DNA of 64,000 nt from a virus. Shown here in pieces: positions 1,507-33,168 of the stretch. The notes below the pieces were generated by a model. That model was not told the origin of the DNA and searched no databases. It was given only the letters and a program-made list of their open reading frames with translations. A program made the translations under genes and the position numbers. The stretch spans positions 1 to 64,000 of IMG/VR virus record IMGVR_UViG_3300034031_000009; one strand, 5' to 3'. Position 1 is the stretch's first letter. The number at the start of each line of letters is the position of its first letter.

Positions 1507-2262
1507 TTATTCGGCCGCCTCGACAATCGCGGCCGATAGGATGCTCCAAACGTCCCGGTATTCTTCAAACATCCCGACTCCGATGCGGTCCATCATTGTG
1601 GATTCATCGGAAAGGAGTCCTTCAGCGGCTGCACTATCGCAGTAGTCGACTCGGTCCAGGTGACTCGCCAGCCATTGCAGCCGCTCCGCATTGTAAACCG
1701 GAACGAGTCCGTCAATCCGTTCCCATGCGACATCGGAGTCGGTTATGTCGGCGCTGCAATCATCCGCCAGAATTTCGGCCATGGCGTCGACGCATTCGCG
1801 CGCAATCCGATAGCTCCAATCGTTCGGCAACTTGTCCCCATGGGCGGCCCGGATTGCGTCCGACATCCATTCTGGCGAACCGTCCTTTAGACAAATGAAC
1901 GACTCCCCGTTGTCGCGTTGTTTCCGCTGAAATGCGGCCGCGAATTCCTCCGCTGCAGCCGCGCGGCGGCCATCCTCATTCGGCCAAAATCCGAAGTCCG
2001 ATCCATCGCCTTCAGTGTTGCCGAAATAGAGTCCGGCTGGCGCCCGATCGTTTAGCCGATCCTGCAATTCGGAAACCAGGTCCGAGTCCGACTCCGTTTC
2101 ATGGATGGACTCAACTCCGATCCTTTCAACGGCCGCACGCGCCTCCGCTATCAAGTCCGAGTCATCCTCATGGCCGATACGCTCCAGTTCAGCCGCGAAA
2201 CTCGACAACAGGTCGACCGTGCGCAACGTGCCGTGCGAAATGGTTCCGGCTTGAATCTTCAT
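1507..2262 (-). CDS. Hypothetical acidic protein (251 aa)
   Basis: ORF track; GAAGGAG SD upstream; D/E-rich. Confidence 0.7.
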   Translation of the reverse strand: MKIQAGTISHGTLRTVDLLSSFAAELERIGHEDDSDLIAEARAAVERIGVESIHETESDSDLVSELQDRLNDRAPAGLYFGNTEGDGSDFGFWPNEDGRRAAAAEEFAAAFQRKQRDNGESFICLKDGSPEWMSDAIRAAHGDKLPNDWSYRIARECVDAMAEILADDCSADITDSDVAWERIDGLVPVYNAERLQWLASHLDRVDYCDSAAAEGLLSDESTMMDRIGVGMFEEYRDVWSILSAAIVEAAE

Positions 2263-2307
2263 GTTAGTTACTCCTTCAGGTTGATAAGACTCGGTAAAGT
2301 TGATTGT

Positions 2308-2712
2308 TTAGGCAGACTCACGGATGCGCGGCGGCTTTTCCATGTTCCGCACGTATTCGCGCGCCTCACTAATCGCCTGCCTCACCATACCGGGGAAATA
2401 AGCGCCATAATTGCAGCCGTCCGCGCGTGACTTCGCCGCGAGTCCATAATGCTCGCAAACGAAATCTTGTGTATCAGCATAAACAGAGCCGCCTAGATAA
2501 TCGGCTGCAATCTCGACTCCGTCCAGCTCGACAGAGACTTTCGAGTCGAATGCGACGAAATCGCCTGAGTCTAGTTTCGCCTGAACTTCGCCGTCTTCGT
2601 CGTCGCCGTCATACTGATAGCCATAATCTTGCTCCAAGATCAGGGAAACCGTGAAACGGCGAGTCCTGAACGTCCAGAGTCGGCCAAACTGATTTCGCTT
2701 ATCTCTCGACAT
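2308..2712 (-). CDS. Hypothetical protein (134 aa)
   Basis: ORF track; GGGAG SD upstream; no family recognised. Confidence 0.65.
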   Translation of the reverse strand: MSRDKRNQFGRLWTFRTRRFTVSLILEQDYGYQYDGDDEDGEVQAKLDSGDFVAFDSKVSVELDGVEIAADYLGGSVYADTQDFVCEHYGLAAKSRADGCNYGAYFPGMVRQAISEAREYVRNMEKPPRIRESA

Positions 2713-2713
2713 C

Positions 2714-2824
2714 TCAGAAACTCCCCTGCAACGTCACAACCGCGCGCCCGATCATCTCGACCAGGGGCAACACAACCGCGAGCGCCGCCGCGATACTCAC
2801 AACCGGGATAAAGAGAACTTGCAT
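2714..2824 (-). CDS. Small hydrophobic peptide (36 aa), below the ORF-track cutoff
   Basis: MQVLFIPVVSIAAALAVVLPLVEMIGRAVVTLQGSF. AAGGAG SD 8 nt upstream; stop 1 nt before the next start. Confidence 0.45.
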   Translation of the reverse strand: MQVLFIPVVSIAAALAVVLPLVEMIGRAVVTLQGSF

Positions 2825-2850
2825 CGACTCGACTCCTTGACTGTCCGAAA

Positions 2851-2879
2851 AACTTAGGGGCGCCCGCGTGACGTGTCAA
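2851..2879 (-). promoter_or_regulatory. Sigma70-like promoter inside the leftward operon
   Basis: Minus strand reads TTGACA (2879-2874), N17, TAAGTT (2856-2851). The -10 overlaps a CCTAAGTTTTT box. Confidence 0.45.
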
Positions 2880-2907
2880 CCGTTTGTTGAAAAGAGGCGC
2901 GATAGGG

Positions 2908-3255
2908 TTAAGAGGTGCCGAACGTCGAATCGACATGGTCGACCGTTTCGCGCCATAGCCGTTCCGCTTCCCGTTCGGCGGCCGGCTTCAGTTCATCGGG
3001 CATAGCGCGCCCGTGAATCGGCACGCTCTTTGCGCGCCATTCGGCTGCAGCCTTCGCGCCTTCTAGGGTGAACGCCGAACTCGACATATAGCCTTGAAAC
3101 GCAATCGTCCGGCTTTCTCCAGGGCCGGTGTGACACGGGACTCCCTTATGGTCGCCGCGCCAAAAAGCCCATGGTTGCGGAGTCATGATCTTCACGCGAT
3201 AGCGGCCAATCTTGGCAACGTGTGAGCCGTTCGGCTGCTCTGTCCAGGTCGTCAT
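2908..3255 (-). CDS. Hypothetical protein (115 aa)
   Basis: ORF track; ATGA overlap with the upstream gene. Confidence 0.65.
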   Translation of the reverse strand: MTTWTEQPNGSHVAKIGRYRVKIMTPQPWAFWRGDHKGVPCHTGPGESRTIAFQGYMSSSAFTLEGAKAAAEWRAKSVPIHGRAMPDELKPAAEREAERLWRETVDHVDSTFGTS

Positions 3256-3431
3256 CTCAACATCTCCTCTACATACGAAACCGCGTCGCGGCGGCTTCCG
3301 TGCGACATCGCGCGCCCGATATGGTCGACCGTCCAGAACGTGCCTGATCGGCTGGCAATAAGAGTCACCTTTCGCCCGTTGGCGCGGTTGAGATAGGTCG
3401 ACTCGTTTCCGTTGATCGTTCCTGCGAACAT
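3252..3431 (-). CDS. Hypothetical protein (59 aa)
   Basis: Start placed at MFAGTING, with AAGGAG SD. The longer 3252..3563 form overlaps 3433..3624. Confidence 0.55.
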   Translation of the reverse strand: MFAGTINGNESTYLNRANGRKVTLIASRSGTFWTVDHIGRAMSHGSRRDAVSYVEEMLR

Positions 3432-3432
3432 T

Positions 3433-3624
3433 TCAGGCGACTCCTTCGATTGGTTCACGGCCGCACCTAATCCGATAAGATCCGGAACCGTTTTCCTGAT
3501 ATTCGCGCAACCGTGCGCGCGCCTCGCGATAGCTGGACTCCTCGCATTCGGTTTCCCAGCCATGTCCGAAACCGTAGTTCCCTTGGACGCGGTAAACGTC
3601 TCGCGTTTTCCTTTGGTATGGCAT
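3433..3624 (-). CDS. Hypothetical protein (63 aa)
   Basis: ORF track; AGGAG SD upstream. Confidence 0.6.
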   Translation of the reverse strand: MPYQRKTRDVYRVQGNYGFGHGWETECEESSYREARARLREYQENGSGSYRIRCGREPIEGVA

Positions 3625-3638
3625 TCCCTTTACTCCTG

Positions 3639-3836
3639 TTAGAGTGATTCAAAATCATCCGCGACCATGGGCGGCCGCTTCGTTCTCCGCTGATCGGACA
3701 GGCGCACGCAATCCCTGCATGCGCCCGTCGAAACGTATCGTTCGCCCGCGTGGCCGGCTCGGCATGCGGCGCCCGTGTAGAACGGTTTCTTGGCGGCCCT
3801 AGCCGCCTGTCTGTCCGCTGACTTAATGCGGGGCAT
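3639..3836 (-). CDS. Small Cys-rich basic protein (65 aa) with an acidic DDFESL C-terminus
   Basis: ORF track; Arg/Lys-rich N-terminus; CRAGH...CRDC pattern. Confidence 0.6.
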   Translation of the reverse strand: MPRIKSADRQAARAAKKPFYTGAACRAGHAGERYVSTGACRDCVRLSDQRRTKRPPMVADDFESL

Positions 3837-4003
3837 TAGCGCGCCCAGGTCCAGCCGGCTGCCAAGGCCGCGTCAAGGTCGACATAGAAACGGGCGCCCC
3901 CGTTCGGATAGGCCATGCGAACCTGTAACCGTCCCTTGCGGCGAACGTGCTGCAGGTTCGCCTCTTTCCCGTCGAAACGGTTGCGCATGCGATAGTCGAT
4001 CAT
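3836..4003 (-). CDS. Hypothetical protein (55 aa), below the ORF-track cutoff
   Basis: MIDYRMRNRFDGKEANLQHVRRKGRLQVRMAYPNGGARFYVDLDAALAAGWTWAR. GGAGTGAG SD upstream; TAATG overlap with 3639..3836. Confidence 0.5.
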   Translation of the reverse strand: MIDYRMRNRFDGKEANLQHVRRKGRLQVRMAYPNGGARFYVDLDAALAAGWTWAR

Positions 4004-4090
4004 CCGACTCACTCCAAAGTTGACGGTTCACCGTTAGCGAGTCCGCGCTCGCATGCAAGGAAAAACTTAGGGCGATTGTCTTAGGGCTGC

Positions 4091-4199
4091 AGGTCGGCAC
4101 AGGTCGGCGGCTATCCCTCGACCATGGGCAGGTCGGCACAGGTCGGCGGCTATCCCTCGACCATGGGCAGGTCGGCACAGGTCGGCGGCTATCCCTCGA
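4091..4199. repeat. Three tandem 39-bp repeats (iteron-like)
   Basis: AGGTCGGCACAGGTCGGCGGCTATCCCTCGACCATGGGC at 4091-4129, 4130-4168 and partial 4169-4199. Each unit carries 2x AGGTCGGC. Confidence 0.9.
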
Positions 4200-4342
4200 T
4201 TATCTTAGGCCGGTTCGTCCCTAAGCCTTTCACCCCTAGAGATTCCGCGCTTTCTTGCCCGCTCACCTGGCATGTGGGCGGCTGAGCTGCCGAAAAACTT
4301 AGGCAAGCCAAAAAACTTAGGATCGGACGCATTCCCTAAGTT

Positions 4343-4373
4343 TTACTGTGTTACTGTGTTAGTGTGTTACATC
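4343..4373. repeat. Four tandem 8-mers TGTGTTA(C/G)
   Basis: TTACTGTGTTACTGTGTTAGTGTGTTAC read directly from the sequence. Confidence 0.8.
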
Positions 4374-4559
4374 GCTAACTCACCTCTTAAAGCATTGATA
4401 TTGCTCGGTTTATCCGGCTATGGGTCCCTCTGTCGGTGTGTTAGCTGGGGTGAGGAGCGCTGAGCCGCCTTTCTTGGCCCTGTTCAGAGTAACCCCCAGA
4501 GCAGATGCCGTTTTTCTTAGGGGAGGCAGATGGCTGCACAGGCACACAGGGTCCGATTT

Positions 4560-4801
4560 GGACCTGTTGCAGCAAAAACGGCTGATTTGCGTGGGTTTGA
4601 ACAGATGAACAGGTGAACAGCTTTTGCTATAGAGTATATTTCTGGAAACAGGGATTCAGGGGGCCTTGCGGCATACCCGTGGTAGGGACGAGAGGGGTAA
4701 AACAGGGGGCTGGGAGAGGAGGGTTAGTAGGGAAACCCCTGTTCACCCTGTGATCCTGTGACAAACCCGCAGAAATCTGCCGTTTTTGCTGCAACAGGTC
4801 C
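4560..4801. other. Putative replication origin
   Basis: Perfect 23-bp inverted repeat: GGACCTGTTGCAGCAAAAACGGC at 4560-4582 and its reverse complement at 4779-4801. It encloses 3x TGAACAG (4597-4620), inverted CTGTTCA/CTGTGA copies (4738-4762) and the AT-rich stretch CTTTTGCTATAGAGTATATTTCT. Lies directly downstream of the primase gene. Confidence 0.5.
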
Positions 4802-4897: not shown

Positions 4898-7357
4898 TCA
4901 GCCCGTTTTGATGCTCATTCGATCAAGTCGACCCTGCCATCCAAACCTCTCATAAACCCGCTGTCTTCCCCACTTGGAGAAGGTCATAAAGCGGCCGTCA
5001 GCCTTCCAAGCCGGGATCTTTGACATCGCGCGACCGAGCGTCTGGGCGGTCTGCTGGTTGTAGAGGCCACGGTCCTTACCGAGGCATTCGACCCACAGCT
5101 CGATCAGGCACGTCTCATTGCGGAAGCGGGGTTGCCCGTCAGGACCGAGGTCTTCGTCCACGCTACCGGACACAATGGGCGCGTCCAGCCATGCAGCGAT
5201 CTGCCCGGCGACCGCGTCATCGACAGACTCGACTCGAGCCGATTCCTGAAGCCGTGCGGCTATGTCTCTGGATTCCGCGTCGGCCAGGTAGAGTGGCAGG
5301 GTGCCCTTCGGCTGCGCCTTCCGCATCGCTTCGTAGAGCGCACGCGCCTCCGCCCACAACTGGTCGACCTCGGCCATCAGGCGGTCGGTGTCGATTTCAT
5401 CCACCGAGCAGAAGATCGGCCAGAAGCGACGGTTGCCGGTGTCGTCCTTGAGATATTTGTCGTCGTTGGTCGACCCGATGAAGACGCACTGCCGGTGGTA
5501 CTCCTGGGCGCGCTTGGCATAGGCCAGGCGGACCTTGTCGGAGCGGCGGCTGATGAACGCCTTGACGTGCCGCACGTCTGCGCGGACGAAGCCGCCCAGT
5601 TCAGGGATTTCGAGCAGCCACGAACCCTGCATGGCTTCAACCATCTGCCGAGGGTCTTCCATGTCGCCTTCAAGCTCGGCGAACCATGACTTTGCCAGCG
5701 TCGAGATGAACGTGGACTTCCGCTTACCCTGCAGGCCCTGAAGAATCACTGCGAAATCGAACTTGGCGCCCGGCTCGAAGATACGCGCCACGCCTGCGAC
5801 CATCATCAGGCGCGCGACGTTGCGGGTATAGGCGTCGTCCGGTGCCCCGAGATAGTCGATGAACAGACGCTCGACGCGCGGCGAGCCGTCCCATTTCACG
5901 GCGGAGAGGTATTCGCGAACCGGATGGAAGCAGTTCTTCCGACCGACGATGTCGATCGCTGCGCGCAGATCCCGGTCGGGCACCTTGATTCCGTAACCAC
6001 CCTGCGTTTTCGGTGCCTCGATCAGCGCACGGATCGCGTTGTCCTTGTCCTCGGTCCAGAAGTCGCCGTTGACCGGGTCACGCAGGAACCAAGATGAGCC
6101 GTCAAGCTGCAGAACAGGCTTGGAAGCATTCTTGCGACGCGCGGATTTGAGGCCGGGCTTGCCGCGCTGCACGACTTCCTGCGTGAACTCGTTGAACGCG
6201 ACCACACCGCGCGTCCACACGTCGTTTTCGACAACCAAGCGTAGGTTATGGAGGTTCGCCTTGATCTCACCTTCGTCGGTGATCGCCAAAAGCGACTTCC
6301 AGCTCGGCGCAGCTTCGGATTCTTCGACCTTACCTCCATCCCAGTCGTCGTCGGACGCCTGTTCAGCCGTCAGCAACTCGTCGAACTCATCCTCAACCTC
6401 GGTCTCTGCGTCCAGATCGTCGAACTCATCGGCCAATGCGACCGACTGGTCGTCGCGTGCCCAGCCAATCACCGTCCGGAAGGTTGTCGGCCGTCGACTC
6501 GTGCGCCGGCCGTAGGACCGCCACTTTCCACGAGTGCCGTTCTTCTTGTAACCGGGCCGTGACTTGGAAAACTCCTCGAACAGCTCCAATCCGACCGCGC
6601 TGGCGGCAAACTGGTGATGGATCGCCATGCCGATCTGATACCAGCTATCGTAATCGGCACCCCGATGATCGGCCAGGCGACCGAGCCACTTGCGAGCGGC
6701 ATCTTCGTCGATGTCGGACAGCGGACCTTCGTCACCGTAGAACGGCTCGCCGGTTTCTTCCTTTGCGCCGGCATCCTCTACTGCGGCAGACGGGATTTCG
6801 GGTGCGACGCCGAGGTTCAGTGCGTCCAGATCGAAGGGTGTGACCCAGACGTAGGGCTTGCCGGTGTCCGGATGGATCGACGGCGGCATGGCAACCTGTT
6901 TGCCGGTGCCGAACAGCTCGATTTCCCACGTCCAGTGCGGCCCCTTGGCGTCAGTGAACTTGACGCCGCTGACAGCCAGCTTGCGCGATTGGAAAGACTT
7001 ATCGGTGACGAAGTAGAGGTGGCGCGACTCGCCTCCGGAACCCGACTGGACGGTCGGCAGCGCGGTCAGATTGACGCCCGGGAACAGGTCGCGCAGTGCT
7101 TCCCATGCGGAACCGGTATCCGATGCGATCCGGATGTCCATGTCGATCACATGGAGGTAGCCACCTTCGACACGCGAGGGTTCACCAAGGCGAACGCCGA
7201 CGTTGTAGTCGGGCGAATAATCGCTGCGCAGCGTCGCGATCGTCGCGACCGGGCGTTCCTGCCACTTGTCACCGATTGGCCGCTTCTGTTTCGGGTGTAA
7301 CCAATGGATCGCGAAGCCGGACTCGACGAACGGGCTGACTGTTTCGATCAGGTTCAT
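4898..7357 (-). CDS. Primase-helicase (N-terminal PrimPol-like domain plus VirE/D5-type P-loop domain), 819 aa
   Basis: Walker A GLQGKRKST. VirE-type motif CVFIGSTNDDKYLKDDTGNRRFWPI. N-terminal PrimPol-like region. ATGA overlap with 7354..7827. Confidence 0.85.
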   Translation of the reverse strand: MNLIETVSPFVESGFAIHWLHPKQKRPIGDKWQERPVATIATLRSDYSPDYNVGVRLGEPSRVEGGYLHVIDMDIRIASDTGSAWEALRDLFPGVNLTALPTVQSGSGGESRHLYFVTDKSFQSRKLAVSGVKFTDAKGPHWTWEIELFGTGKQVAMPPSIHPDTGKPYVWVTPFDLDALNLGVAPEIPSAAVEDAGAKEETGEPFYGDEGPLSDIDEDAARKWLGRLADHRGADYDSWYQIGMAIHHQFAASAVGLELFEEFSKSRPGYKKNGTRGKWRSYGRRTSRRPTTFRTVIGWARDDQSVALADEFDDLDAETEVEDEFDELLTAEQASDDDWDGGKVEESEAAPSWKSLLAITDEGEIKANLHNLRLVVENDVWTRGVVAFNEFTQEVVQRGKPGLKSARRKNASKPVLQLDGSSWFLRDPVNGDFWTEDKDNAIRALIEAPKTQGGYGIKVPDRDLRAAIDIVGRKNCFHPVREYLSAVKWDGSPRVERLFIDYLGAPDDAYTRNVARLMMVAGVARIFEPGAKFDFAVILQGLQGKRKSTFISTLAKSWFAELEGDMEDPRQMVEAMQGSWLLEIPELGGFVRADVRHVKAFISRRSDKVRLAYAKRAQEYHRQCVFIGSTNDDKYLKDDTGNRRFWPIFCSVDEIDTDRLMAEVDQLWAEARALYEAMRKAQPKGTLPLYLADAESRDIAARLQESARVESVDDAVAGQIAAWLDAPIVSGSVDEDLGPDGQPRFRNETCLIELWVECLGKDRGLYNQQTAQTLGRAMSKIPAWKADGRFMTFSKWGRQRVYERFGWQGRLDRMSIKTG

Positions 7358-7853: not shown

Positions 7854-8153
7854 TCAGGCGTAGACGAAGCGATTAAAGTCCTCGATCACGGGCGGCGTGC
7901 GACCTGCTTCGGTCAGCGCGGCGACGTTATCCGGTGTGTTGGCGAGCGCGCAGATGGCTTTGGCGTTACCCGGCGTCAGCTTCGAGTCGCGCAGCCACTG
8001 ATAGACCCGCTCGTGGGAGCGCTTGATGTCGGTCTTCAGCTTCTTCACGTCGAGGGCGCCGCGCTCGGTGACGTGCCTCGGGAATATCTGCATCAGGTAG
8101 AGGTAGAGCGGGCTGTCGGTCCAGACGCGGCCTGCTGGAATATCAATGGTCAT
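7854..8153 (-). CDS. Cro-like HTH regulator heading the leftward operon (99 aa)
   Basis: First gene left of the divergent promoter region; helix-turn-helix-like segment RSHERVYQWLRDSKLTPGNAKAICAL. Confidence 0.55.
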   Translation of the reverse strand: MTIDIPAGRVWTDSPLYLYLMQIFPRHVTERGALDVKKLKTDIKRSHERVYQWLRDSKLTPGNAKAICALANTPDNVAALTEAGRTPPVIEDFNRFVYA

Positions 8154-8184
8154 GTCGCTGGGAACTCCTGTCGATTTCGACCAG

Positions 8185-8270
8185 TCATAACCGTGGCGGC
8201 AGCTAAAATCAACACAATAGGGATTGGATCACGAAAGGGTTGAAAGTTCGTTGGGGCTGTGCGTATATGG
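8185..8270. promoter_or_regulatory. Divergent early promoter/operator region
   Basis: Leftward: TTGATT (reverse complement of 8207-8212), about N16, TATGAC (reverse complement of 8185-8190). Rightward: TTGAAA (8240-8245), about N17-18, TATATG. Contains GTTGAAAGTTC (8239-8249), also present in two other promoters. Confidence 0.45.
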
Positions 8271-8324
8271 CTGCGACTCGGCGGTCGACGCCGGGGACCA
8301 ATCAATCCAGAGGACCATACGAAT

Positions 8325-8876
8325 ATGACCGCACTGACTATCGAAGGCGTTATGACCAGCATCGTCGCACTGACGACCGCGCTGAACCGCGTCGCCGACA
8401 ACCAGGATCGTCTGATCGCCGGCCAGGCAGCAGCGATCGCAGCCGCCGAGGGCGGTAAGACCAGCACCCGGACGCCGCGTGCGTCGAAGAAGGAGGAGAC
8501 GCCTGCACCGGCTGCCGGGCAGAAGGTCGAGGAAGTCGTCGAGCCGCGCACCGTCGAGGAAGTCGTCGCCGCTGCGCCCGAAATGGCGAACGTCGATGCT
8601 CTCAAGGAATATGTGACCAAGTGGACCGGTGCCGCGACCGACGACGCCGACAAGGCCGCTCGTGTCGGCCTGCTGAAGGGTATCGCTGGCAAGTTCGGCG
8701 TGAAGCCCGCCTTCTCCGAGCTGTTCCCGCATGCCGTTCAGGCTGTGTTCCTGATCGAGCGTGCCAAGAAGCTGGGCATCTCGGCTGTCGATTTGAAGGC
8801 TGACTACGACTTCTCGGGTGATCCGGCGCAGGATGTCGGCGGCCCGGCTGCCACCAGCGACGACGAGTTCGGTTAA
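8325..8876 (+). CDS. Hypothetical protein (183 aa) with an SSB-like acidic tail ...SDDEFG
   Basis: Start placed at MTALTIEG, with AGAGGA SD. The C-terminal DDEFG is identical to the tail of the DUF2815 SSB-like protein. Confidence 0.65.
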   Translation: MTALTIEGVMTSIVALTTALNRVADNQDRLIAGQAAAIAAAEGGKTSTRTPRASKKEETPAPAAGQKVEEVVEPRTVEEVVAAAPEMANVDALKEYVTKWTGAATDDADKAARVGLLKGIAGKFGVKPAFSELFPHAVQAVFLIERAKKLGISAVDLKADYDFSGDPAQDVGGPAATSDDEFG

Positions 8877-8932
8877 GCGGGGGTGCCGGGCGGCTTCGGT
8901 CGCCCGGCGTTCCGTTGAACGCAGAGGCGATC

Positions 8933-9100: not shown

Positions 9101-9573
9101 GCGCGAAATTCGGCGACCAGTTGCTGACCATCCGCATCCCACTGTGGAAATACGCATTTCGCCTTACTAGAGACCCTGACCATGCAGAAGATTTGCTGAG
9201 TGACACGATTTTGCGAGCGCTGGTGAATCACCATCAGTTCGAGCCGGGAACCAACCTGCTGGGATGGTGCAACTTCATCATGCGAAATCTTTTTCTGACA
9301 GGCATGCGCAGGCGGAAGTGGGACGGTGGGAGCATCGAAGATCTCGAAGTTCATCAGTTGCCGGCCATCCCGGCACCACAGGAAGCAGCGGTGTACCTGG
9401 CCGAGGCAAAGCAAGCCGTACAGCGCATGCCGGAGAAGGTACGCAAGGCCGTCCTGATGACCGGCGCAGGTGAAAGCTACGAATACGTTGCCGAGCAGAC
9501 CGGCATGGCACTCGGCACAGTCAAATCGCAGGTCTTTCGTGCCCGCCAACGTCTGATCAGGATGTCCGCATGA
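9097..9573 (+). CDS. ECF-type RNA polymerase sigma factor (158 aa)
   Basis: Region 2-like DPDHAEDLLSDTILRALVNHHQFEPGTNLLGWCNFIMRN. Region 4 HTH YEYVAEQTGMALGTVKSQVFRARQRL. Confidence 0.8.
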   Translation: MSAKFGDQLLTIRIPLWKYAFRLTRDPDHAEDLLSDTILRALVNHHQFEPGTNLLGWCNFIMRNLFLTGMRRRKWDGGSIEDLEVHQLPAIPAPQEAAVYLAEAKQAVQRMPEKVRKAVLMTGAGESYEYVAEQTGMALGTVKSQVFRARQRLIRMSA

Positions 9574-10745
9574 GCGCCGAAGAACTGCCCGATCACTCAG
9601 AGAAGTCGCCGTCATCCGCCGAAGGGTGGACGACCTGCCCGGACTACATCAACGCCAATCGCGGGCTGCCGGACATCACGTCCTACGTCGCCGCCGAGGG
9701 CACACACGCCCACCATATTCGCAACGACTGCCTGACGCAGGGCTATGACGCCGCTGGCGCGGTCGGCGAAACCATGAAGGTCGGCGACTGGACCTTCGAG
9801 TGGACGGAGGAAGACGCCTTCCTGCTCCAGAGAGGTATCGACCACGTTCGATCCTATGAGGGCACGCTGTACGGCGAACACTGGGTCGATCTGACCGAGT
9901 GGCTGGGCTTCGACAGTCACGGCCGCCGGCAGGGCGGCACGCTCGACGTGGGAATCGTCGGGGATGGGTTCTATGTGGTCAATGATCTGAAATGGGGACG
10001 CGGCATCCCGGTGCGCGCTCCGCGCAACAAGCAACTGATGCTGTACGCGCTGGGGTTCGGCCGCGAGCATGGTGTCACAGATCCCTCCACAGTATTTCAC
10101 ATCGAAATCGACCAGCCCCGGCGAATGGGCGGCGGTGGTTCCTGGTCGACGATCTGGGGCGAGCTGCTGGCGTTCGGCGAGTGGATCAAGACTGTCCCGC
10201 ACGACAGTAGCCGCGTCGCCTCGTGGCCGGGGTGCCTTTGGTGCCGGCAGGGCGGCAACTGGGCGGTCGGCAACCCGAAGTGCGCCACCTACGACAGGTT
10301 CGTGCTGGACGCCCTGCGCGCTGAGTTCGACGATTTGGAGTTGAAGATGCCGACCGAGTTGACCCCGCAGCAGCGCGCCGTGATCGCCGAGAACAAGTCG
10401 GCCATCGAATTGTGGCTGGCTGCGATCGTCGATCAGACCAAGCATGTCGCGCTGTCCGGCGGCGACGCGGGCGGACTGAAAGCGGTCAATGGGCCGCGCA
10501 ATCCGTCAAAGTGGCGCGACCGGGTGGCGGCGGAGGCCGTGCTGAAAGCGGCTCTTGGTGAGAAAGGTTTCACCAAACAGTTGATTACTCCAACGCAGGC
10601 GAGTAAGAAGGTTTCTTCGGACGATCTCGACTGGCTGCTGATCGAACCACTCATTGAGTGGGGCCAGCCGCGTGTCGAACTCGCACCGGAGGAAGACGAG
10701 CGTCCGTCAATCACGTCGGGCGCCGAGTTCGAGGATCTTGACTGA
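9570..10745 (+). CDS. DUF2800-like PD-(D/E)XK (Cas4-like) nuclease (391 aa)
   Basis: DVGIV...NDLKWGRG nuclease-like core and a C-terminal Cys cluster (CLWC...C). Occupies the canonical position before the DUF2815 gene and the polymerase. Confidence 0.65.
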   Translation: MSAEELPDHSEKSPSSAEGWTTCPDYINANRGLPDITSYVAAEGTHAHHIRNDCLTQGYDAAGAVGETMKVGDWTFEWTEEDAFLLQRGIDHVRSYEGTLYGEHWVDLTEWLGFDSHGRRQGGTLDVGIVGDGFYVVNDLKWGRGIPVRAPRNKQLMLYALGFGREHGVTDPSTVFHIEIDQPRRMGGGGSWSTIWGELLAFGEWIKTVPHDSSRVASWPGCLWCRQGGNWAVGNPKCATYDRFVLDALRAEFDDLELKMPTELTPQQRAVIAENKSAIELWLAAIVDQTKHVALSGGDAGGLKAVNGPRNPSKWRDRVAAEAVLKAALGEKGFTKQLITPTQASKKVSSDDLDWLLIEPLIEWGQPRVELAPEEDERPSITSGAEFEDLD

Positions 10746-20714: not shown

Positions 20715-20927
20715 ATGTTCAAGATTGTGAGGCGCCTGCGTGTGACGCTGACGCTAAAGAGCGGAATAGAGATCGAGTTCGATTGCGACGACCTGACGAA
20801 GAACTTCCGTGGCAACGACTTGACCGGGCTGCAGGCCGCTCGCAGTCGGAACTGGCCGTTCTATATTCGCCTGGACGACATCTCGGCTATCCAGACCCGG
20901 AAAACTGGCTGGGTCATCAGGTTGTAG
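20715..20927 (+). CDS. Hypothetical protein (70 aa)
   Basis: ORF track; GAAAGGA SD. The stop codon lies inside the box at 20921-20938. Confidence 0.6.
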   Translation: MFKIVRRLRVTLTLKSGIEIEFDCDDLTKNFRGNDLTGLQAARSRNWPFYIRLDDISAIQTRKTGWVIRL

Positions 20928-20938
20928 GATTGTTGGAG
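20921..20938 (+). promoter_or_regulatory. M-box copy GTTGTAGGATTGTTGGAG
   Basis: 18/18 identical to 25518-25535. See findings for the full copy list. Confidence 0.8.
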
Positions 20939-21010
20939 GATCGCGCGCCCACTGCGGCAGCGCCCTCCGGAACCGGAAGCCTCTAAAAGTCGCCAAATGA
21001 AAGGATGGAT

Positions 21011-23934: not shown

Positions 23935-24696
23935 TCAGAGCAGATCCTTGAGGTCGATTCGCTGCTCGTAGAGTAAACGGATGACTGCCTGAACAGTCTT
24001 GGATGCACCTAGAATCGTTCGTGCATCTTTAAGGTGCCGCTTCACTGTTTCCTCAGAGATGCCGAGATGCTTGCCGATTTCATGCTCGGTCAGGCCGCGT
24101 CCGGCAAGCATCACACATTCGACCTGCCGATCGGTGAGGCTGTGACGTTCAATGGCGTGACTGCCTGGCGACAGGATGAATCGTCGCCCGGCCTCAAATG
24201 CGAACAGGGCCACCGTCTGCGCCATGAGCAGGTTTTCCGTGGACAACTCGCGACCGGCGTTCATGGCAAAGCTGCACGAGCCTGACGGTTGATCGGGGAG
24301 GTGGACCGGAACGACAAACGTCTCCCCGATCCCCGCGCGTGCCTCGGCCACTGTGAAATCCCTCTCCGCGTCGGTGCGGTCGCGGGGAATATCGTAGGAC
24401 CGGAAGCCGACACTGGTGCGGCGCCCGAACGCCACCACCGGGTCGATGTCGATGAAGTGGTTGCGCGTGTAGTGCTCCGCCCAAGACTCCGCATGATTAT
24501 GGAAGCAGACCATCTCCCCCTTCGCCATGTGGTCGAGGTTCGATTGGTAGCCGGATAGATCGACCCACTGGACGACAGAGTAGCGGTCGAAGCGCATGTT
24601 GCTGCCGATAGCCTCAACCAGGACGGCCACCTGCCTCGGTGTGTTTGCTAGTCGGGTGGCGTCTATGAACGATTGGATGTCAACCAAGCGGCTCAT
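23935..24696 (-). CDS. LuxR-family regulator (253 aa): autoinducer-binding-like N-domain plus LuxR HTH
   Basis: WAEHYTRNHFIDIDP has the W-x3-Y-x8-DP spacing of the conserved W57/Y61/D70/P71 positions of TraR/LuxR. C-terminal HTH LTDRQVECVMLAGRGLTEHEIGKHLGISEETVKRHL. Confidence 0.8.
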   Translation of the reverse strand: MSRLVDIQSFIDATRLANTPRQVAVLVEAIGSNMRFDRYSVVQWVDLSGYQSNLDHMAKGEMVCFHNHAESWAEHYTRNHFIDIDPVVAFGRRTSVGFRSYDIPRDRTDAERDFTVAEARAGIGETFVVPVHLPDQPSGSCSFAMNAGRELSTENLLMAQTVALFAFEAGRRFILSPGSHAIERHSLTDRQVECVMLAGRGLTEHEIGKHLGISEETVKRHLKDARTILGASKTVQAVIRLLYEQRIDLKDLL

Positions 24697-24791
24697 GGGT
24701 CGAGGTTAGCTGCGTCGCCCTGTCGCGGGCAAGACCCCTTGATGTCGCGGCTTGTTTTGTAACATGATTCGTTGTAACTTAATTGCATTGA

Positions 24792-24840
24792 ACCGGGGCG
24801 GCCTCTCAGCGATGCACACTGCCCCGGTCTTTTGGGGTTT
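24792..24840 (+). terminator. Terminator-like hairpin upstream of (antisense to) the luxR-type gene start
   Basis: ACCGGGGC-21 nt-GCCCCGGT followed by CTTTTGGGGTTT. Confidence 0.35.
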
Positions 24841-24953
24841 CAGAGGAAGGGCGCGAGCGCACCCGGTCCCCGCATAGTGCGGGATCAACGCCCCGGCGCG
24901 AACGGCCGTACCTGCTGGCAGACCAGGTGTATAATCGTCTGCCTCCTTTCCCC

Positions 24954-24997
24954 GTTGTAGGATTGCTGTAGCCCGTCATGGGAATCCCCATAACGCC
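24954..24997 (+). promoter_or_regulatory. M-box plus hairpin module
   Basis: GTTGTAGGATTGCTGTAG-cccgt-CATGGGAATCCCCATAACGCC. The last 21 nt are identical to the reverse complement of 30145-30165. TATAAT lies at 24930-24935, just upstream. Confidence 0.75.
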
Positions 24998-25048
24998 TCT
25001 GCCGTTCGACGACCATCTAGGTCGCCATCATGGCGTTTCACTTTCTGG

Positions 25049-25078
25049 TTGACACGACTCCGAATCACTCGCTAGCGA
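25049..25078 (+). promoter_or_regulatory. Sigma70-like promoter pointing into the ORF-free locus
   Basis: GGTTGACAC-N15-GCTAGCGA. Same architecture as the promoters at 2879, 20156, 30684 and 32023. Confidence 0.4.
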
Positions 25079-25084
25079 TGCGGC

Positions 25085-25500
25085 TCGCCACGGCACTGAG
25101 ACCTCGGTCTTTAGGACGGTGACGGAGCAGGATAGGCCGGACGCCTGCTCCACGAAATCGCCCCGAGTTCCACGGCGTAAGTAGGCGACGGCCCAAAGCG
25201 TGAGATGGAGCGGGAACGGCCAGGGTGGCGGTCAGTAGTTCCGGATCAGAATGTCGGAGCGAATGCCGCCACCCTGCGAGTTTCGCAGTGCAGAGAAGCG
25301 CCGAGGCACGGGCAGTAGGTGGTACGGCTCGCGAGGCCCCCATCGAAGGATCGAGAAGGCGTCAGGAACTGGTCGCTGCGTAGGGTGGCGGCGAACGTCA
25401 TGCGCTGGGCGGTAGGTTCCGTCGCATGACGGAAACGGCGCCGCCACCCACTTTATCCACAGCCCATTGAGTCCCATCTAATCCCATGCCGTCCGTCCTC
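25085..25500 (+). ncRNA. Candidate structured RNA / int leader, or attP arm region (unassigned)
   Basis: No credible ORF in six frames. 11-bp helices at 25221-25231/25266-25276 and 25383-25393/25439-25449, the latter with a nested 9-bp helix 25396-25404/25423-25431. An 8-bp hairpin at 25124-25151. Confidence 0.25.
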
Positions 25501-25517
25501 GAACCAGCGACGCGACT

Positions 25518-25560
25518 GTTGTAGGATTGTTGGAGAAAGCGTTACGGGAAATCCCGTTAC
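25518..25560 (+). promoter_or_regulatory. M-box plus hairpin module upstream of int
   Basis: GTTGTAGGATTGTTGGAG-aaagcgtt-ACGGGAAATCCCGT-TACGC. Confidence 0.75.
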
Positions 25561-25658
25561 GCAGCAATGTCAACAACTTACGATGCAGCATCGGCGACTG
25601 CCGGGGTCGCCAATCACCATTCCATGACACCTTCTGGAACCTCCCTGGACACCGCGCA

Positions 25659-25680
25659 AACCCTTTAACCATAAAGGGTT
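25659..25680 (+). promoter_or_regulatory. Perfect 9-bp stem / 4-nt loop hairpin in the int upstream region
   Basis: AACCCTTTA-acca-TAAAGGGTT; no U-tract follows. Confidence 0.6.
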
Positions 25681-25775
25681 CCTGTCTCATACGTTCCCAT
25701 ATTGCATCTGGACAGCCCGCGCCTGACTGCTAAACCTACCACGGTTTCTACAGCAGCAGAGGGACGGCCTACAAC

Positions 25776-26960
25776 ATGCTCACCGATACCGAGATTAAGC
25801 AGACTCCGACCCCAGAGGCCGTCAAGAAGATGGCTGATGGGGGTGGTCTTTATATTGAGCTGTCCCCTGCCGGCACGCGGACCTGGCGATGGGCGTTCCG
25901 ACACTGTGGCAAGCAAAAGACGCTGACGATCGGTGCCTACCCGAAGGTCACGCTTGCCCAAGCGCGCAAGGCCCGCGATCTAGCTCGGGAGCGATTGAAG
26001 GACGGGGTCGACCCTGTGATCGAACGCCAGCAGCAACGCGAACGCGCCATGGCGGCGGCTGGAACGACGTTCGAGGACATCGGCCGTGAGTGGCAAAATA
26101 AACGGAAGCAGGAGGATCTGTCTGACTCGGCGTACCGCAAGGATAAGCAGTTGCTCGACCATCACGCTTATCCGGCAATCGGGCCGCGACCCATCAACAC
26201 GATCACGCCGCCGGAAATCCTGACGCTACTGCGTCGCGTCGAGGTCCGGGGTCATGTTCACACTGCGAAGCGTCTGCGCTCCACCCTATCGCGGGTGTTT
26301 CGTTATGGCGTTGCGACCGGGCGCTGTGATCGCGATCCCGCTGCGGACCTGGTGGGCGCGCTTGTGACGAAGAAAACAGTGCATCATCCCGCACTGTTCG
26401 ATCCGAAGGAAATCGGCGCCCTGGTGCGCGCCATGGACGGATACGAAGGTAAGTTGGTTCGCTTGGCAATGCTGATCCAGCTTCACACCTTCGTTCGGCC
26501 GGGGGAACTGCGGAAGGCCATGTGGTCCGAGTTCGACTTGGATACCGCAATTTGGAGGATTTCCGGCGCACGCATGAAAATGCGACGGGACCACATCGTA
26601 CCATTGTCGCCGCAGGTCGTTACGATGTTGCGCGAGCTGCAAGAATTGAGCGGGTACGGGCACTGGCTGTTTCCGTCGATGCTTGGCAGCAAGATTTGCA
26701 TGTCGGATGCCACCGTCAACGCAGCGCTGCGGCGTCTCGGGTACGGTCGCGACCGGGTGGTCGGCCACGGGTTCCGCAGAACCGCCAGCACGATTCTAAA
26801 CGAGAGCGGACTGTGGTCGGTGGATTCGGTCGAGCTTCAGTTGGCCCACGTCGACGGCTCTGTGAGGGGAATTTACAATGCTGCATTGCGTCTCGACGAG
26901 CGCACCAAAATGATGTCCTGGTACAGCGATTGGCTCAATGAGCAAGCCGCTAAAGTCTAG
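25776..26960 (+). CDS. int: Tyrosine integrase, P4-type (DUF4102-like N-terminus), 394 aa
   Basis: N-terminus LTDTEIKQ...GGGLYIELSPAGTRTWRWAFR...TLTIGAYP. Catalytic HGFRRT, LAHV and terminal Y (IYNAA). Confidence 0.9.
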   Translation: MLTDTEIKQTPTPEAVKKMADGGGLYIELSPAGTRTWRWAFRHCGKQKTLTIGAYPKVTLAQARKARDLARERLKDGVDPVIERQQQRERAMAAAGTTFEDIGREWQNKRKQEDLSDSAYRKDKQLLDHHAYPAIGPRPINTITPPEILTLLRRVEVRGHVHTAKRLRSTLSRVFRYGVATGRCDRDPAADLVGALVTKKTVHHPALFDPKEIGALVRAMDGYEGKLVRLAMLIQLHTFVRPGELRKAMWSEFDLDTAIWRISGARMKMRRDHIVPLSPQVVTMLRELQELSGYGHWLFPSMLGSKICMSDATVNAALRRLGYGRDRVVGHGFRRTASTILNESGLWSVDSVELQLAHVDGSVRGIYNAALRLDERTKMMSWYSDWLNEQAAKV

Positions 26961-27591: not shown

Positions 27592-27783
27592 ATGAGCAAG
27601 CGAACGGAGTTTTGGCGCATCAATATGGTGATCGCCGTGGTCGGACTATCTCGCAGCGAGATTTATCGGAGAGTCGCTGCCGGCACGTTTCCGCAGCCAC
27701 GGAAATACAGCGGCGGCAGCACCGCGAGTTTTTGGGTCTCTGACGAGATCCACCAGTGGCAGCGCCAGCAGCTAGACGGCTGA
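27592..27783 (+). CDS. alpA: AlpA-family HTH protein (63 aa), candidate excisionase/regulator
   Basis: LSRSEIYRRVAAGTFPQPRKYSGGSTASFWVSDEIHQWQ matches the AlpA/Xis-type signature. AAGGAG SD. Confidence 0.85.
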   Translation: MSKRTEFWRINMVIAVVGLSRSEIYRRVAAGTFPQPRKYSGGSTASFWVSDEIHQWQRQQLDG

Positions 27784-27803
27784 TTGGCGACCCGCGCAGG
27801 GTT

Positions 27804-28055
27804 CTAAAGTCGGCCGCAGCGATTAGGCTCGCCGTGTGCGTCCGCGTAGCAAACCCCGGCTTCATCGCATCCGACGCCCATGTTGCACGGCTTGGTCGGA
27901 AGCAGTGCCTCCAACGATCCTACAACACCGACCTCAAAGAAGCCGTCCTCGACGGCTTGGGCGTGGATCGCTTCGATAGTCCACCCTTCGCCGATCTTCT
28001 GCTCAAGGTACGATTCCTCGAACCCTGCATCGCGGAGTTCCTGGTAGAGCGTCAT
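27804..28055 (-). CDS. Hypothetical acidic protein (83 aa)
   Basis: Start at MTLYQELR, with ATGA overlap with 28052..28315. Confidence 0.55.
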   Translation of the reverse strand: MTLYQELRDAGFEESYLEQKIGEGWTIEAIHAQAVEDGFFEVGVVGSLEALLPTKPCNMGVGCDEAGVCYADAHGEPNRCGRL

Positions 28056-30684: not shown

Positions 30685-30768
30685 CCGAAAGTTGAATGGA
30701 GATTTGGCGACCCTATGGGTCCACCGCCGTCAGAGGGGAAACGGGGAAAATCGCGGCGATCCTACAAC

Positions 30769-32438: not shown

Positions 32439-33168
32439 TTTTGACGATCTTCTGACCCCGACCCGGAAACGCGGCCGCCCATCGAACGCCGACCGGGCAG
32501 CGCGGATGGAACAAGCTGCCCGCGAAGCTGAGATGCAGGCCGAGTTCCGCAAGGCCGCGCAGGGCCACCAGTCGCTGCAGATCGACCAGTTCCTGAATCC
32601 GGTGCCGCAGAACTTCCTCGCACGCCTGATGAACATGGACCCGGCCACCGTCAACAAGCGGCTGGAGAAGTGCAAGCCCGCCGCCGTGGTCGGACAGCGC
32701 AAGGTCTACTGGTTTCACGAGGCGATCCACTATCTCGTGAAGCCGAAGATGACGGCAGAGCAGTTCGCGCGCACCCTGAACAAGACTGACCTGCCCGCCG
32801 AGATCAACAAGTCCTTCTGGGATGCCCAACGCAGCCGCGTCAAATACAAGATCGAGGCGCAGGAAGCATGGGAGACGGAGGACGTGCTGGAAGTCCTCGG
32901 CGACGTGGCGATGACGCTGAAGGACAGCCTGGTTTCCGTGGTCGAGGAGATGCGTAATCGTGCTAAACTGGACGATGCACAAACCGAGATCCTGTCGGCG
33001 GCGCTCGACGAAATCCGCACCGAGATTCGACGCAAGCTGATCGAGTTGCCCACGCAGAAAGCGACCGGTGCCATGTTCGCCAAGCCGATGTTCGGCGTGG
33101 CCGAGGAGATCGACCGAGAACCAGATGTGCCGGTTGACCCGTGGTCGGATGAGGATGACGACGAGTGA
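32416..33168 (+). CDS. terS: Terminase small subunit candidate (250 aa; alternative GTG start 32431)
   Basis: Lies immediately upstream of, and overlapping, TerL. HTH-like FLARLMNMDPATVNKRL. Acidic C-terminus. Confidence 0.6.
   Translation: MRSGNVDDFDDLLTPTRKRGRPSNADRAARMEQAAREAEMQAEFRKAAQGHQSLQIDQFLNPVPQNFLARLMNMDPATVNKRLEKCKPAAVVGQRKVYWFHEAIHYLVKPKMTAEQFARTLNKTDLPAEINKSFWDAQRSRVKYKIEAQEAWETEDVLEVLGDVAMTLKDSLVSVVEEMRNRAKLDDAQTEILSAALDEIRTEIRRKLIELPTQKATGAMFAKPMFGVAEEIDREPDVPVDPWSDEDDDE

Follow-up and report, generated by a model that had tools for sequence, protein, structure and literature searches.

The window analysed here is a 64,000-nt stretch of viral DNA (positions 1 to 64,000 of IMG/VR record IMGVR_UViG_3300034031_000009), the genome of a temperate phage in non-integrated form, in which the integrase gene (int) has phage genes to both sides, and our subject is the gene-free locus of 1079 nt directly 5′ of int (24697-25775; 1.7% of the window). 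We consider it probable that this locus is a composite of three parts, namely a phage attachment site (attP) at 25518-25775 that targets a host transfer RNA (tRNA)-Arg gene, a non-coding unit at ~25049-25450 that is the probable source of a rightward RNA, and a luxR control region at 24697-25048. The attP part is ordinary biology that is now precisely located, and its core on a tRNA-Arg 3′ end supplies a testable host target and a prophage orientation for an uncultured phage group that carries a LuxR-type gene and whose layout around int resembles that of the Casjensviridae phage RcPutin. The insert in the middle matters only if it is expressed; if so, it would be a new phage non-coding RNA (ncRNA) at the prophage end beside a quorum-sensing regulator.

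The division of the locus comes from comparison with related phages. A search of 5.8 billion proteins gave six phage lineages with integrases 60-74% identical to that of the window, and their contigs, cited here by L numbers, were compared. The alignment divides the locus in three: 24697-~25150 occurs in this phage only, ~25150-25450 is shared only with L021, the closest relative, and ~25470-25775 is present in all relatives. The gap before int measures 1079 nt in the window; L021 has 1135 nt, L022 has 973 nt and the other four lineages have 304-410 nt. A first-pass annotation of the window, made from the sequence alone, had described 24697-25775 as free of open reading frames (ORFs), which held: there are only short ORFs and no conserved one. 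The features listed in it were all confirmed, with positions that agree exactly or to within one base. The six-frame comparison with the homologous L021 region is interrupted by stop codons in every frame, and a protein-coding gene was rejected on this comparison.

The same annotation had offered attP as one of two readings of the locus and had expected a tRNA 3′ end as the attachment target. Both were right as far as the core is concerned, as it lies inside the interval: the 15-nt sequence CTGCCGGGGTCGCCA (25598-25612), on the int strand and 163 nt 5′ of the int ATG, is the sequence with which bacterial tRNA-Arg(UCU/CCU) genes end. This 15-mer is unchanged in six of seven related phages despite differing flanks, and in L023 and L024 it is extended to 24 nt, GTTCGAGCCCTGCCGGGGTCGCCA, comprising the T-loop, the 3′ strand of the T-stem, the 3′ strand of the acceptor, the discriminator and CCA. 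We scanned IMG/VR viral contigs for the pattern TTCRANNCCTGCCGGGGTCGCCA and classed the resulting 73 loci with ARAGORN. Exact tRNA-Arg 3′ ends account for 50 loci (45 tct, four cct and one tcg), and 23 loci are incomplete tRNA copies such as remain behind at att sites; several of the contigs hold one full and one partial tRNA-Arg copy. Because the extended core pattern is an exact tRNA-Arg 3′ end at viral loci, the core in the window can be equated with the last 15 nt of a tRNA-Arg gene. From its inverted-repeat structure we infer how the site would be used. The 7-nt spacer TGCCGGG is the likely overlap region, and strand exchange would take place in or near it, with a host tRNA-Arg(UCU or CCU) gene, at its 3′ end, as the partner, while the core domains of the integrase (Int) would bind the inverted half-sites GGCGAC/GTCGCC. 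A crossover in this spacer fits L029, where the tRNA identity ends after CTGCCGGG. Since the 15-nt identity reaches the CCA end, integration would regenerate an intact tRNA-Arg beside int, and the displaced tRNA end would be left at the other prophage junction. The perfect hairpin that follows the core, proposed earlier and present with its arms at 25659-25667 and 25672-25680, may be a terminator for the regenerated tRNA or a protein site.

The arms of the site are defined by repeats that each phage has in its own version. In all relatives, a phage-specific repeat of 9-11 nt, present twice in tandem at a period of 11 nt, is found ~250 nt 5′ of int (GTTGTAGG in the window, GTAGGTAGG in L023, TGTTGCAA in L025, and GTTGGACAGAT in L027 and L029), and inverted copies of the phage's own repeat lie at most 40 nt from the int ATG, the last one over the ATG; in the window, the last inverted copy, CCTACAAC (25768-75), abuts it. 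RcPutin has a matching repeat layout with TATGGTCTA. At the attL of a Sphingopyxis island, int (a relative with 48% identity) starts 178 nt past a same-strand tRNA-Leu, and the gap between them is filled with direct and inverted repeats, with ATGCCCCCA over the int ATG. In phage lambda, too, arm-type repeats are arranged as two plus three in opposite orientation. The N-terminal domain of Int diverges faster than the remaining protein (47-79% vs. 60-79%), and the similarity of the repeats tracks the similarity of this domain, the best pairs being window-L021 (79%) and L027-L029 (61%), which fits GTTGTAGG-type repeats being the arm-type sites. The N-terminal arm domain would then bind the two direct repeats at 25518-25536 and the three inverted ones at 25735-25775, and since the last of these lies over the int start codon, Int would probably keep its own production in check as well.

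A different sequence, GGGTGGCGG, had been put forward as the arm site, and in this respect the anatomy of the earlier attP reading was wrong, as the copies are hairpin stems. There are five copies in the window, four of these in the locus, with 1.2 expected. Five of seven Int relatives are without any copy, the paired arms co-vary, the two arms of one hairpin changing jointly irrespective of the changes in the other, and the distance between arms is not the same in the window and L021 (32 vs. 55 nt in one hairpin, 45 vs. 19 nt in the other). Because the arms change jointly per hairpin and the spacing is free, what is preserved is the pairing, and not four copies of a protein site.

Our attP resembles the sites that heterobivalent tyrosine integrases use at tRNA 3′ ends (lambda/P4 type; KplE1 attL-intS, PMC2951348; Islander principle, PMC4383910) in its arm-binding Int, in a core that equals a tRNA gene 3′ end and lies on the int strand 150-180 nt 5′ of int, in the arm-type repeats on either side, and in an identity block that restores the tRNA; an element restoring the tRNA it splits is the canonical arrangement (PMC4383910). 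The repeat over the int start has its counterpart in the self-repressed intS of KplE1 (PMC2951348). Unlike in these sites, the arm-type repeat is here also found at other promoters, and the last 7 nt of the core stand before many genes. A variation on tRNA use, tRNA-dependent lysogeny, has been described in actinobacteriophages (PMC10865867), and differs from the situation in the window, where the core reaches the CCA end and the phage has no tRNA gene. Among the relatives, L029 and also L030 carry an attP-like block (L029 3079-3087) that has only CTGCCGGG in common with the tRNA-Arg end, so that integration of L029 would not rebuild the tRNA, and a complete tRNA-Arg(tct) gene 3 nt past the int stop codon on the other strand (L029 4504-4580); these features are the two hallmarks of tRNA-dependent lysogeny (PMC10865867). 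In L025, a second, paralogous attP-like layout (6866-7286; tandem TGTTGCAA, CTGCCGGGGTCGCCA, TTAACCATAA and inverted repeats) lies 3 kb 5′ of the int-proximal one, with a TTGACA promoter and an unrelated gene of 225 aa behind it; the TTAACCATAA motif is also that of the hairpin at 25659-25680. The paper on the Rhodobacter capsulatus phages (PMC8601537) gives no attP or attB.

The conservation of the central insert may point to an RNA. Its homology with L021 begins at 25157 with a block that we call H0, which is 92% identical in the two phages vs. 72% for the int coding sequence, has a fold z-score of ~0 relative to shuffles, contains stops in all plus-strand frames, and shows substitutions that are non-synonymous in the open minus-strand frame. 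H0 is followed by the two long hairpins H1 and H2, both of which the first-pass annotation had recognized: perfect helices of 11 bp are present at 25221-25231/25266-25276 and at 25383-25393/25439-25449, the latter with a nested 9-bp helix at 25396-25404/25423-25431, and an 8-bp hairpin at 25124-25151 is likewise seen in the sequence. In L021, the flanks of H1 are identical (15 nt on the 5′ side and the 9-nt CGAGTTTCG on the 3′ side) while the loops, of 32 nt in the window and 55 nt in L021, are unrelated. Nine stem positions differ, amounting to four compensatory pairs and one change from G-U to G-C, and all 12 pairs are kept. Random substitution keeps all 12 pairs in ~1e-4 of trials (4e-2 if only transitions are allowed and wobbles are counted), and by simple counting ~5e-4 of transition-only sets yield an all-Watson-Crick stem. 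The fold of H1 has a z-score of -5.1 on the plus strand and -3.4 on the minus strand, and one terminal pair is G-U on the plus strand only. The H2 stem is invariant in L021, where it comprises 13 bp, with loops of 45 nt in the window and 19 nt in L021. Of the homology of the two hairpins proposed earlier, the stem sequence common to both could be verified, and the apical GTAG(G/T)TTCCG described with it is found in the window but is missing from L021, where the loops differ. The description of the whole locus as rich in helices applies to the long hairpins (z = -5.1 each vs. shuffles), whereas 25150-25520 overall is mild, with z-scores of -1.8 (+) and -2.2 (−). The 64-kb window has seven inverted repeats that are perfect over 11 bp or more and fit within 80 nt, two of them in the locus.

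A promoter pointing into the locus had also been predicted, and its elements are in place (TTGACA at 25049-25054, GCTAGCGA at 25071-78), but a scan for E. coli-type promoters finds nothing; we take the −10 element to be of the Caulobacter type, GCTA, and the promoter thus presumably to be of an alphaproteobacterial type. The sequence TTTCACYTTTCTG(G)TTGACA, followed after 16-18 nt by (G/C)CTA or TA, stands 106 nt 5′ of H0 in the window and, at L021 5281, 162 nt 5′ of H0 in L021. It also occurs at 30690(−) of the window and near 7225 of L025, and heads operons at these two places. The hairpins are more stable on the plus strand in three of four cases, and the GC skew of this strand switches from between +0.13 and +0.36 (G-rich) across the central element to -0.48 at 25435-25504; the C-rich tract past H2 (25450-25517) is a possible Rho-loading region. 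A rightward transcript is favoured by the promoter motif, the hairpin stability on the plus strand, the terminal G-U pair on this strand only, and the skew switch after H2. Our best guess is therefore that the insert is a candidate new ncRNA of ~370 nt. It would be transcribed rightward as one RNA of ~370 nt or as two shorter RNAs, with the conserved single-stranded H0 block as the working part and with H1 and H2 as stable 3′ ends. In a lysogen, the orientation of attP would place the element and its RNA at the attR end of the prophage, beside luxR, which would be a typical position for lysogeny-expressed cargo.

Phages and prophages encode small regulatory RNAs such as DicF and the immunity RNAs P4 CI and P1 C4. 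The insert resembles these in being non-coding, in having a candidate promoter of its own, in its position in an accessory or lysogeny region at the prophage end, and in the succession of an unstructured conserved stretch and GC-rich hairpins; it differs from them in that it has no sequence or Rfam relation, no U-tract terminator and no target at phage translation starts. The last point stems from a comparison of exact 11-mers and duplex energies with all phage translation starts, which gave no outlier, and an antisense role of this kind was rejected.

Several results weigh against the composite reading of the locus. On the attP side, an Int search in a set of genomes from 185,579 species, in which the relatives were at most 45% identical, gave no prophage of this group and no attB, attL or attR, be it of this phage or of close relatives, and both scans of metagenome contigs were without a match; generic tRNA-Arg genes that end in this 3′ sequence do exist, as seen at the viral-contig loci. 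Many accessory genes are likewise preceded by the final 7-8 nt of the core (GTCGCCA), so that part of the core motif must serve in a second way. The GTTGTAGG repeat is also found at three other intergenic sites in the window, and because of these copies the arm-type repeat may be the operator of another phage regulator, instead of or besides an Int arm site, or Int may regulate those operons. On the side of the insert, the central element is homologous to L021 only, and the covariation thus comes from two sequences: blastn against phages and plasmids and searches for exact H0 and H1 patterns in viral and metagenome contigs returned nothing or unrelated sequences, a search via homologues of the neighbouring 84-aa protein gave no further central element, and no similar sequence lies beside the 73 tRNA-Arg loci. 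In agreement with the first-pass annotation, which recognized no RNA family, the Rfam 15 covariance models gave no match at gathering score in the window, and only noise at E-values up to 10 in 24500-26000 and in L021 5200-6050. There is no canonical terminator at the insert, as a weak site at 25023-25035 is all that the scan reports, and H1 and H2, with their long loops and without a U-tract, do not conform to intrinsic terminators. The fold of 25150-25520 is unexceptional (z = -1.8 on the plus strand) with H0 unstructured, and inverted repeats that are kept by compensation fit DNA hairpins equally well.

The insert could alternatively be a long 5′ leader of int, as the second reading of the first-pass annotation had it, which combined a structured RNA with a possible int leader. 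Transcription would then start at 25049, perhaps also at the LuxR-linked TATAAT at 24930, and continue through H0, H1, H2 and attP into int, and the hairpins would be attenuators or processing sites that set the level of Int. The promoter at 25049 does aim at int, without a canonical terminator in between, the same promoter module drives another operon at 30690(−), and a lux-box-like site lies just 5′. We nevertheless regard a leader as unlikely, because the same 300 nt next to int are present without the element in RcPutin and in five of the seven relatives, which means that int does not need it, and because the whole prophage separates the element from int once integration has occurred; moreover, the C-rich, G-poor tract past H2 could allow Rho termination. 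As most relatives without the insert keep the same int-proximal region, it is not a general int leader, and what is left of the second reading is a structured RNA that is possible for ~25085-25450 only.

Two further explanations dispense with an RNA. H0 and the hairpins could act as DNA, either as additional protein-binding sites or cruciform or single-stranded structures that extend the P arm, or in replication or packaging. This would agree with a position directly adjoining the P arm, with the fact that compensatory changes keep inverted repeats in DNA as well, with a similar stability on either strand, and with one perfect DnaA-type box, TTATCCACA, at 25456-25464. We give such a role only a small chance, since the arm spacing is not kept (32/55 and 45/19 nt) and is thus unfit for the binding of a dimer, the element is missing from most relatives, the DnaA-like box is not kept in L021, and the region is not AT-rich. 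Just as improbable in our view is inert cargo, a remnant of foreign or host DNA that was trapped by past recombination between duplicated half-att modules (module A of the luxR control region and attP), with hairpins that derive from terminators of the source. The patchy distribution and the location between direct repeats of an M-box with a tRNA-end-like box are in line with this origin, as is an H2-like hairpin with the same 5′ flank past a phage-borne transfer-messenger RNA (tmRNA) gene in unrelated phages. However, H0 is better conserved than the adjacent int and the changes in H1 are compensatory and not random, both of which point to selection, and nothing similar was present beside the 73 tRNA-Arg loci examined. 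We prefer a composite locus with a putative rightward ncRNA between attP and the luxR control region.

The hairpin found in unrelated phages concerns the H2 stem, which is also present 3′ of phage-borne permuted tmRNA genes in L115 and L119, two unrelated tail clusters, and in L115 the hairpin has the 5′ flank GCGGGAACGGC in common with H1; outside L021, no other trace of the element was seen. A tmRNA fragment as the origin of the central element was rejected, as H0 is no closer to the tmRNA regions of L115 and L119 than shuffles are and no model matches; ARAGORN reports neither a tRNA nor a tmRNA in the window. The two clusters (L115 3792-4339, L119 6806-8576) are P2/Mu-like, with a permuted tmRNA of the alphaproteobacterial type between the baseplate genes V and W, in L119 together with a tRNA-Met and a tRNA-like sequence, and the tmRNA is followed by a long non-coding stretch with GGGTGGC(GGCG) hairpins.

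The leftmost part of the locus, 24697-25048, is to all appearances the control region of the divergent luxR gene. The TATAAT at 24930-24935, noted before as perfect, is indeed so, and the palindrome that abuts it (24910-24928), which we take to resemble lux or las boxes, is the only ACCTG-N8-11-CAGGT site in 64 kb, with 0.12 expected; it is a candidate binding site for the phage LuxR. A terminator-like hairpin at 24792-24839 is not called by the terminator scan because its loop has 21 nt. Next to the candidate promoter is module A, and module A and the promoter at 25049 together are a paralogue of the module at 30778-30680(−). In the first-pass annotation, M-box modules were said to bracket the locus, and while the direct repeats GTTGTAGGATTG do stand at 24954 and 25518, they are not specific to the locus, as they also occur at 20921, 27926(−) and 30768(−). 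Near-perfect tandem copies of GTTGTAGGATYGTTGGAG are found at 20921-20938, 27909-27926(−) and 30757-30768(−), which are intergenic or promoter-like sites. The features of the locus and its neighbourhood are listed in the table.

Table. Coordinates of the features in and around the gene-free locus 5′ of int.
Feature	Position	Strand	Remarks
LuxR-type gene	23935-24696	minus	Autoind_bind and GerE domains
Terminator-like hairpin ACCGGGGC/GCCCCGGT, then CTTTTGGGGTT	24792-24839	plus	luxR upstream region; not conserved in L021
Lux-box-like palindrome ACCTGCTGGCAGACCAGGT (24910-24928) abutting perfect TATAAT (24930-24935)	24910-24935	plus	214 nt 5′ of luxR ATG
Module A: tandem GTTGTAGG-type repeat (24954-24971), small hairpin (24978-24991), box GTTCGACGACCATCTAGGTCGCCA (25004-25027)	24954-25027	plus	
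Candidate promoter: TTGACA (25049-25054), 17-nt spacer, CTAGCG within GCTAGCGA	25049-25078	plus	Points into central element
8-bp hairpin GGAGCAGG/CCTGCTCC	25124-25151	plus	Near predicted transcript 5′ end; weakly paralleled in L021
H0: 63-nt conserved block without predicted structure	25157-25220	plus	L021 5444-5516
H1: 12-bp GC-rich hairpin (25221-25276) and invariant 3′ flank CGAGTTTCG	25221-25285	plus	
H2: 11-bp hairpin GGGTGGCGGCG/CGCCGCCACCC with nested 9-bp hairpin	25383-25449	plus	z = -5.1
C-rich, G-poor tract with GTCCCAT-type repeats	25450-25517	plus	Junction to attP; kept in part in all relatives
attP P arm: two direct repeats GTTGTAGG and GTTGGAGA, 11 nt apart	25518-25536	plus	
attP core GGCGAC-TGCCGGG-GTCGCC-A	25593-25612	plus	Inverted repeat around 7-nt spacer
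Perfect 9-bp hairpin AACCCTTTA/TAAAGGGTT	25659-25680	plus	47 nt past core; kept in L021
attP P′ arm: three inverted repeats CCTACCAC (25735-42), CTACAGCA (25748-55), CCTACAAC (25768-75)	25735-25775	minus	
Tyrosine integrase with arm-binding domain	25776-26960	plus	Pfam Arm-DNA-bind_3 (8e-26), Phage_int_M, Phage_integrase
AlpA-type gene	27592-27783		

The second use of the core motif concerns a box, TTMGAC-N10-GTCGCCA(T/A), that agrees with the tRNA-Arg 3′ end in 16-19 of its 24 positions and stands 8-25 nt 5′ of the ribosome-binding site (RBS) or ATG of many small genes in the two accessory arms that flank int. In the window, boxes are located at 20990, 21680, 21955, 22191, 22688 and 25020 on the plus strand and at 27792, 28330, 30114 and 30712 on the minus strand, and in L021, where the box reads GTCGCCATAGGAGAATGAAGATG, at 2120-4647 and 8147-8924; the box GTTCGACGACCATCTAGGTCGCCA of module A is such a degenerate copy of the tRNA-Arg 3′ end (16/24 positions). 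Like the attP core, the box is an imperfect inverted repeat, with a different spacer. Start-associated sequences and pseudo-att sites are two things that the box may represent. A promoter and an RNase P-type tRNA mimic were rejected, as the spacing fits neither a sigma-70 −35/−10 pair nor a foldable T-arm. The start-associated sequences of Cluster K mycobacteriophages are short conserved motifs a fixed few bases 5′ of the RBS or start of many small genes (PMC3203893). Our boxes share with these the fixed placement before many small genes and differ from them in sequence and in that they resemble the attP core as a tRNA-Arg 3′ end (16-19/24). To our knowledge, no tRNA-end resemblance is known for start-associated sequences.

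Because the boxes before the accessory genes resemble the attP core, one may think of the accessory arms around int as cassette arrays built by the integrase, with the central element as the newest cassette, captured at attP in the way integrons capture at attI. We consider this improbable, and mention that the central hairpin element does lie between two modules of arm repeat and box, directly beside attP. Linked to this idea is the possibility that the phage LuxR, via the lux-box-like site at 24910-24928, activates transcription of the element into an RNA, which would tie quorum sensing to the attachment site. The recurring tRNA-end-like boxes hint, as yet without proof, at how such phages shuffle small genes. 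A further sequence on the minus strand, CTGCGCGGGTCGCCA (27785-27799), matches the attP core at 13 of 15 positions and lies 2 nt past the alpA stop codon, downstream of the repeat at 27926(−); it could be a pseudo-attP.

As to the genome as a whole, the window has a GC content of ~60%, and genes for a PrimPol/VapE helicase, a family-A-like DNA polymerase, a helicase, a tailspike and a gpA-type large terminase were identified. The nearest cultured relatives of Int belong to Rhodobacter capsulatus phages of the RcD cluster (Casjensviridae) with ~42% identity, and these phages have the same gene order of helicase, helix-turn-helix gene, gap, int, excise and terminase. Chromosomal relatives with ~48-50% identity come from Sphingomonadales.

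Two minor observations remain. In the spacer between H1 and H2, the 14 nt at 25362-25375 have an exact reverse-complement match at 32583-32596 in a DUF1441 (small terminase-like) gene, which may be meaningless, as ~0.2 such matches are expected by chance. In L022, a 430-bp insertion (9563-10001) is located between duplicated ACATGCTG at the very start of int; it carries an 85-nt tRNA-Cys(gca) on the opposite strand, and a truncated first copy of the int start remains.

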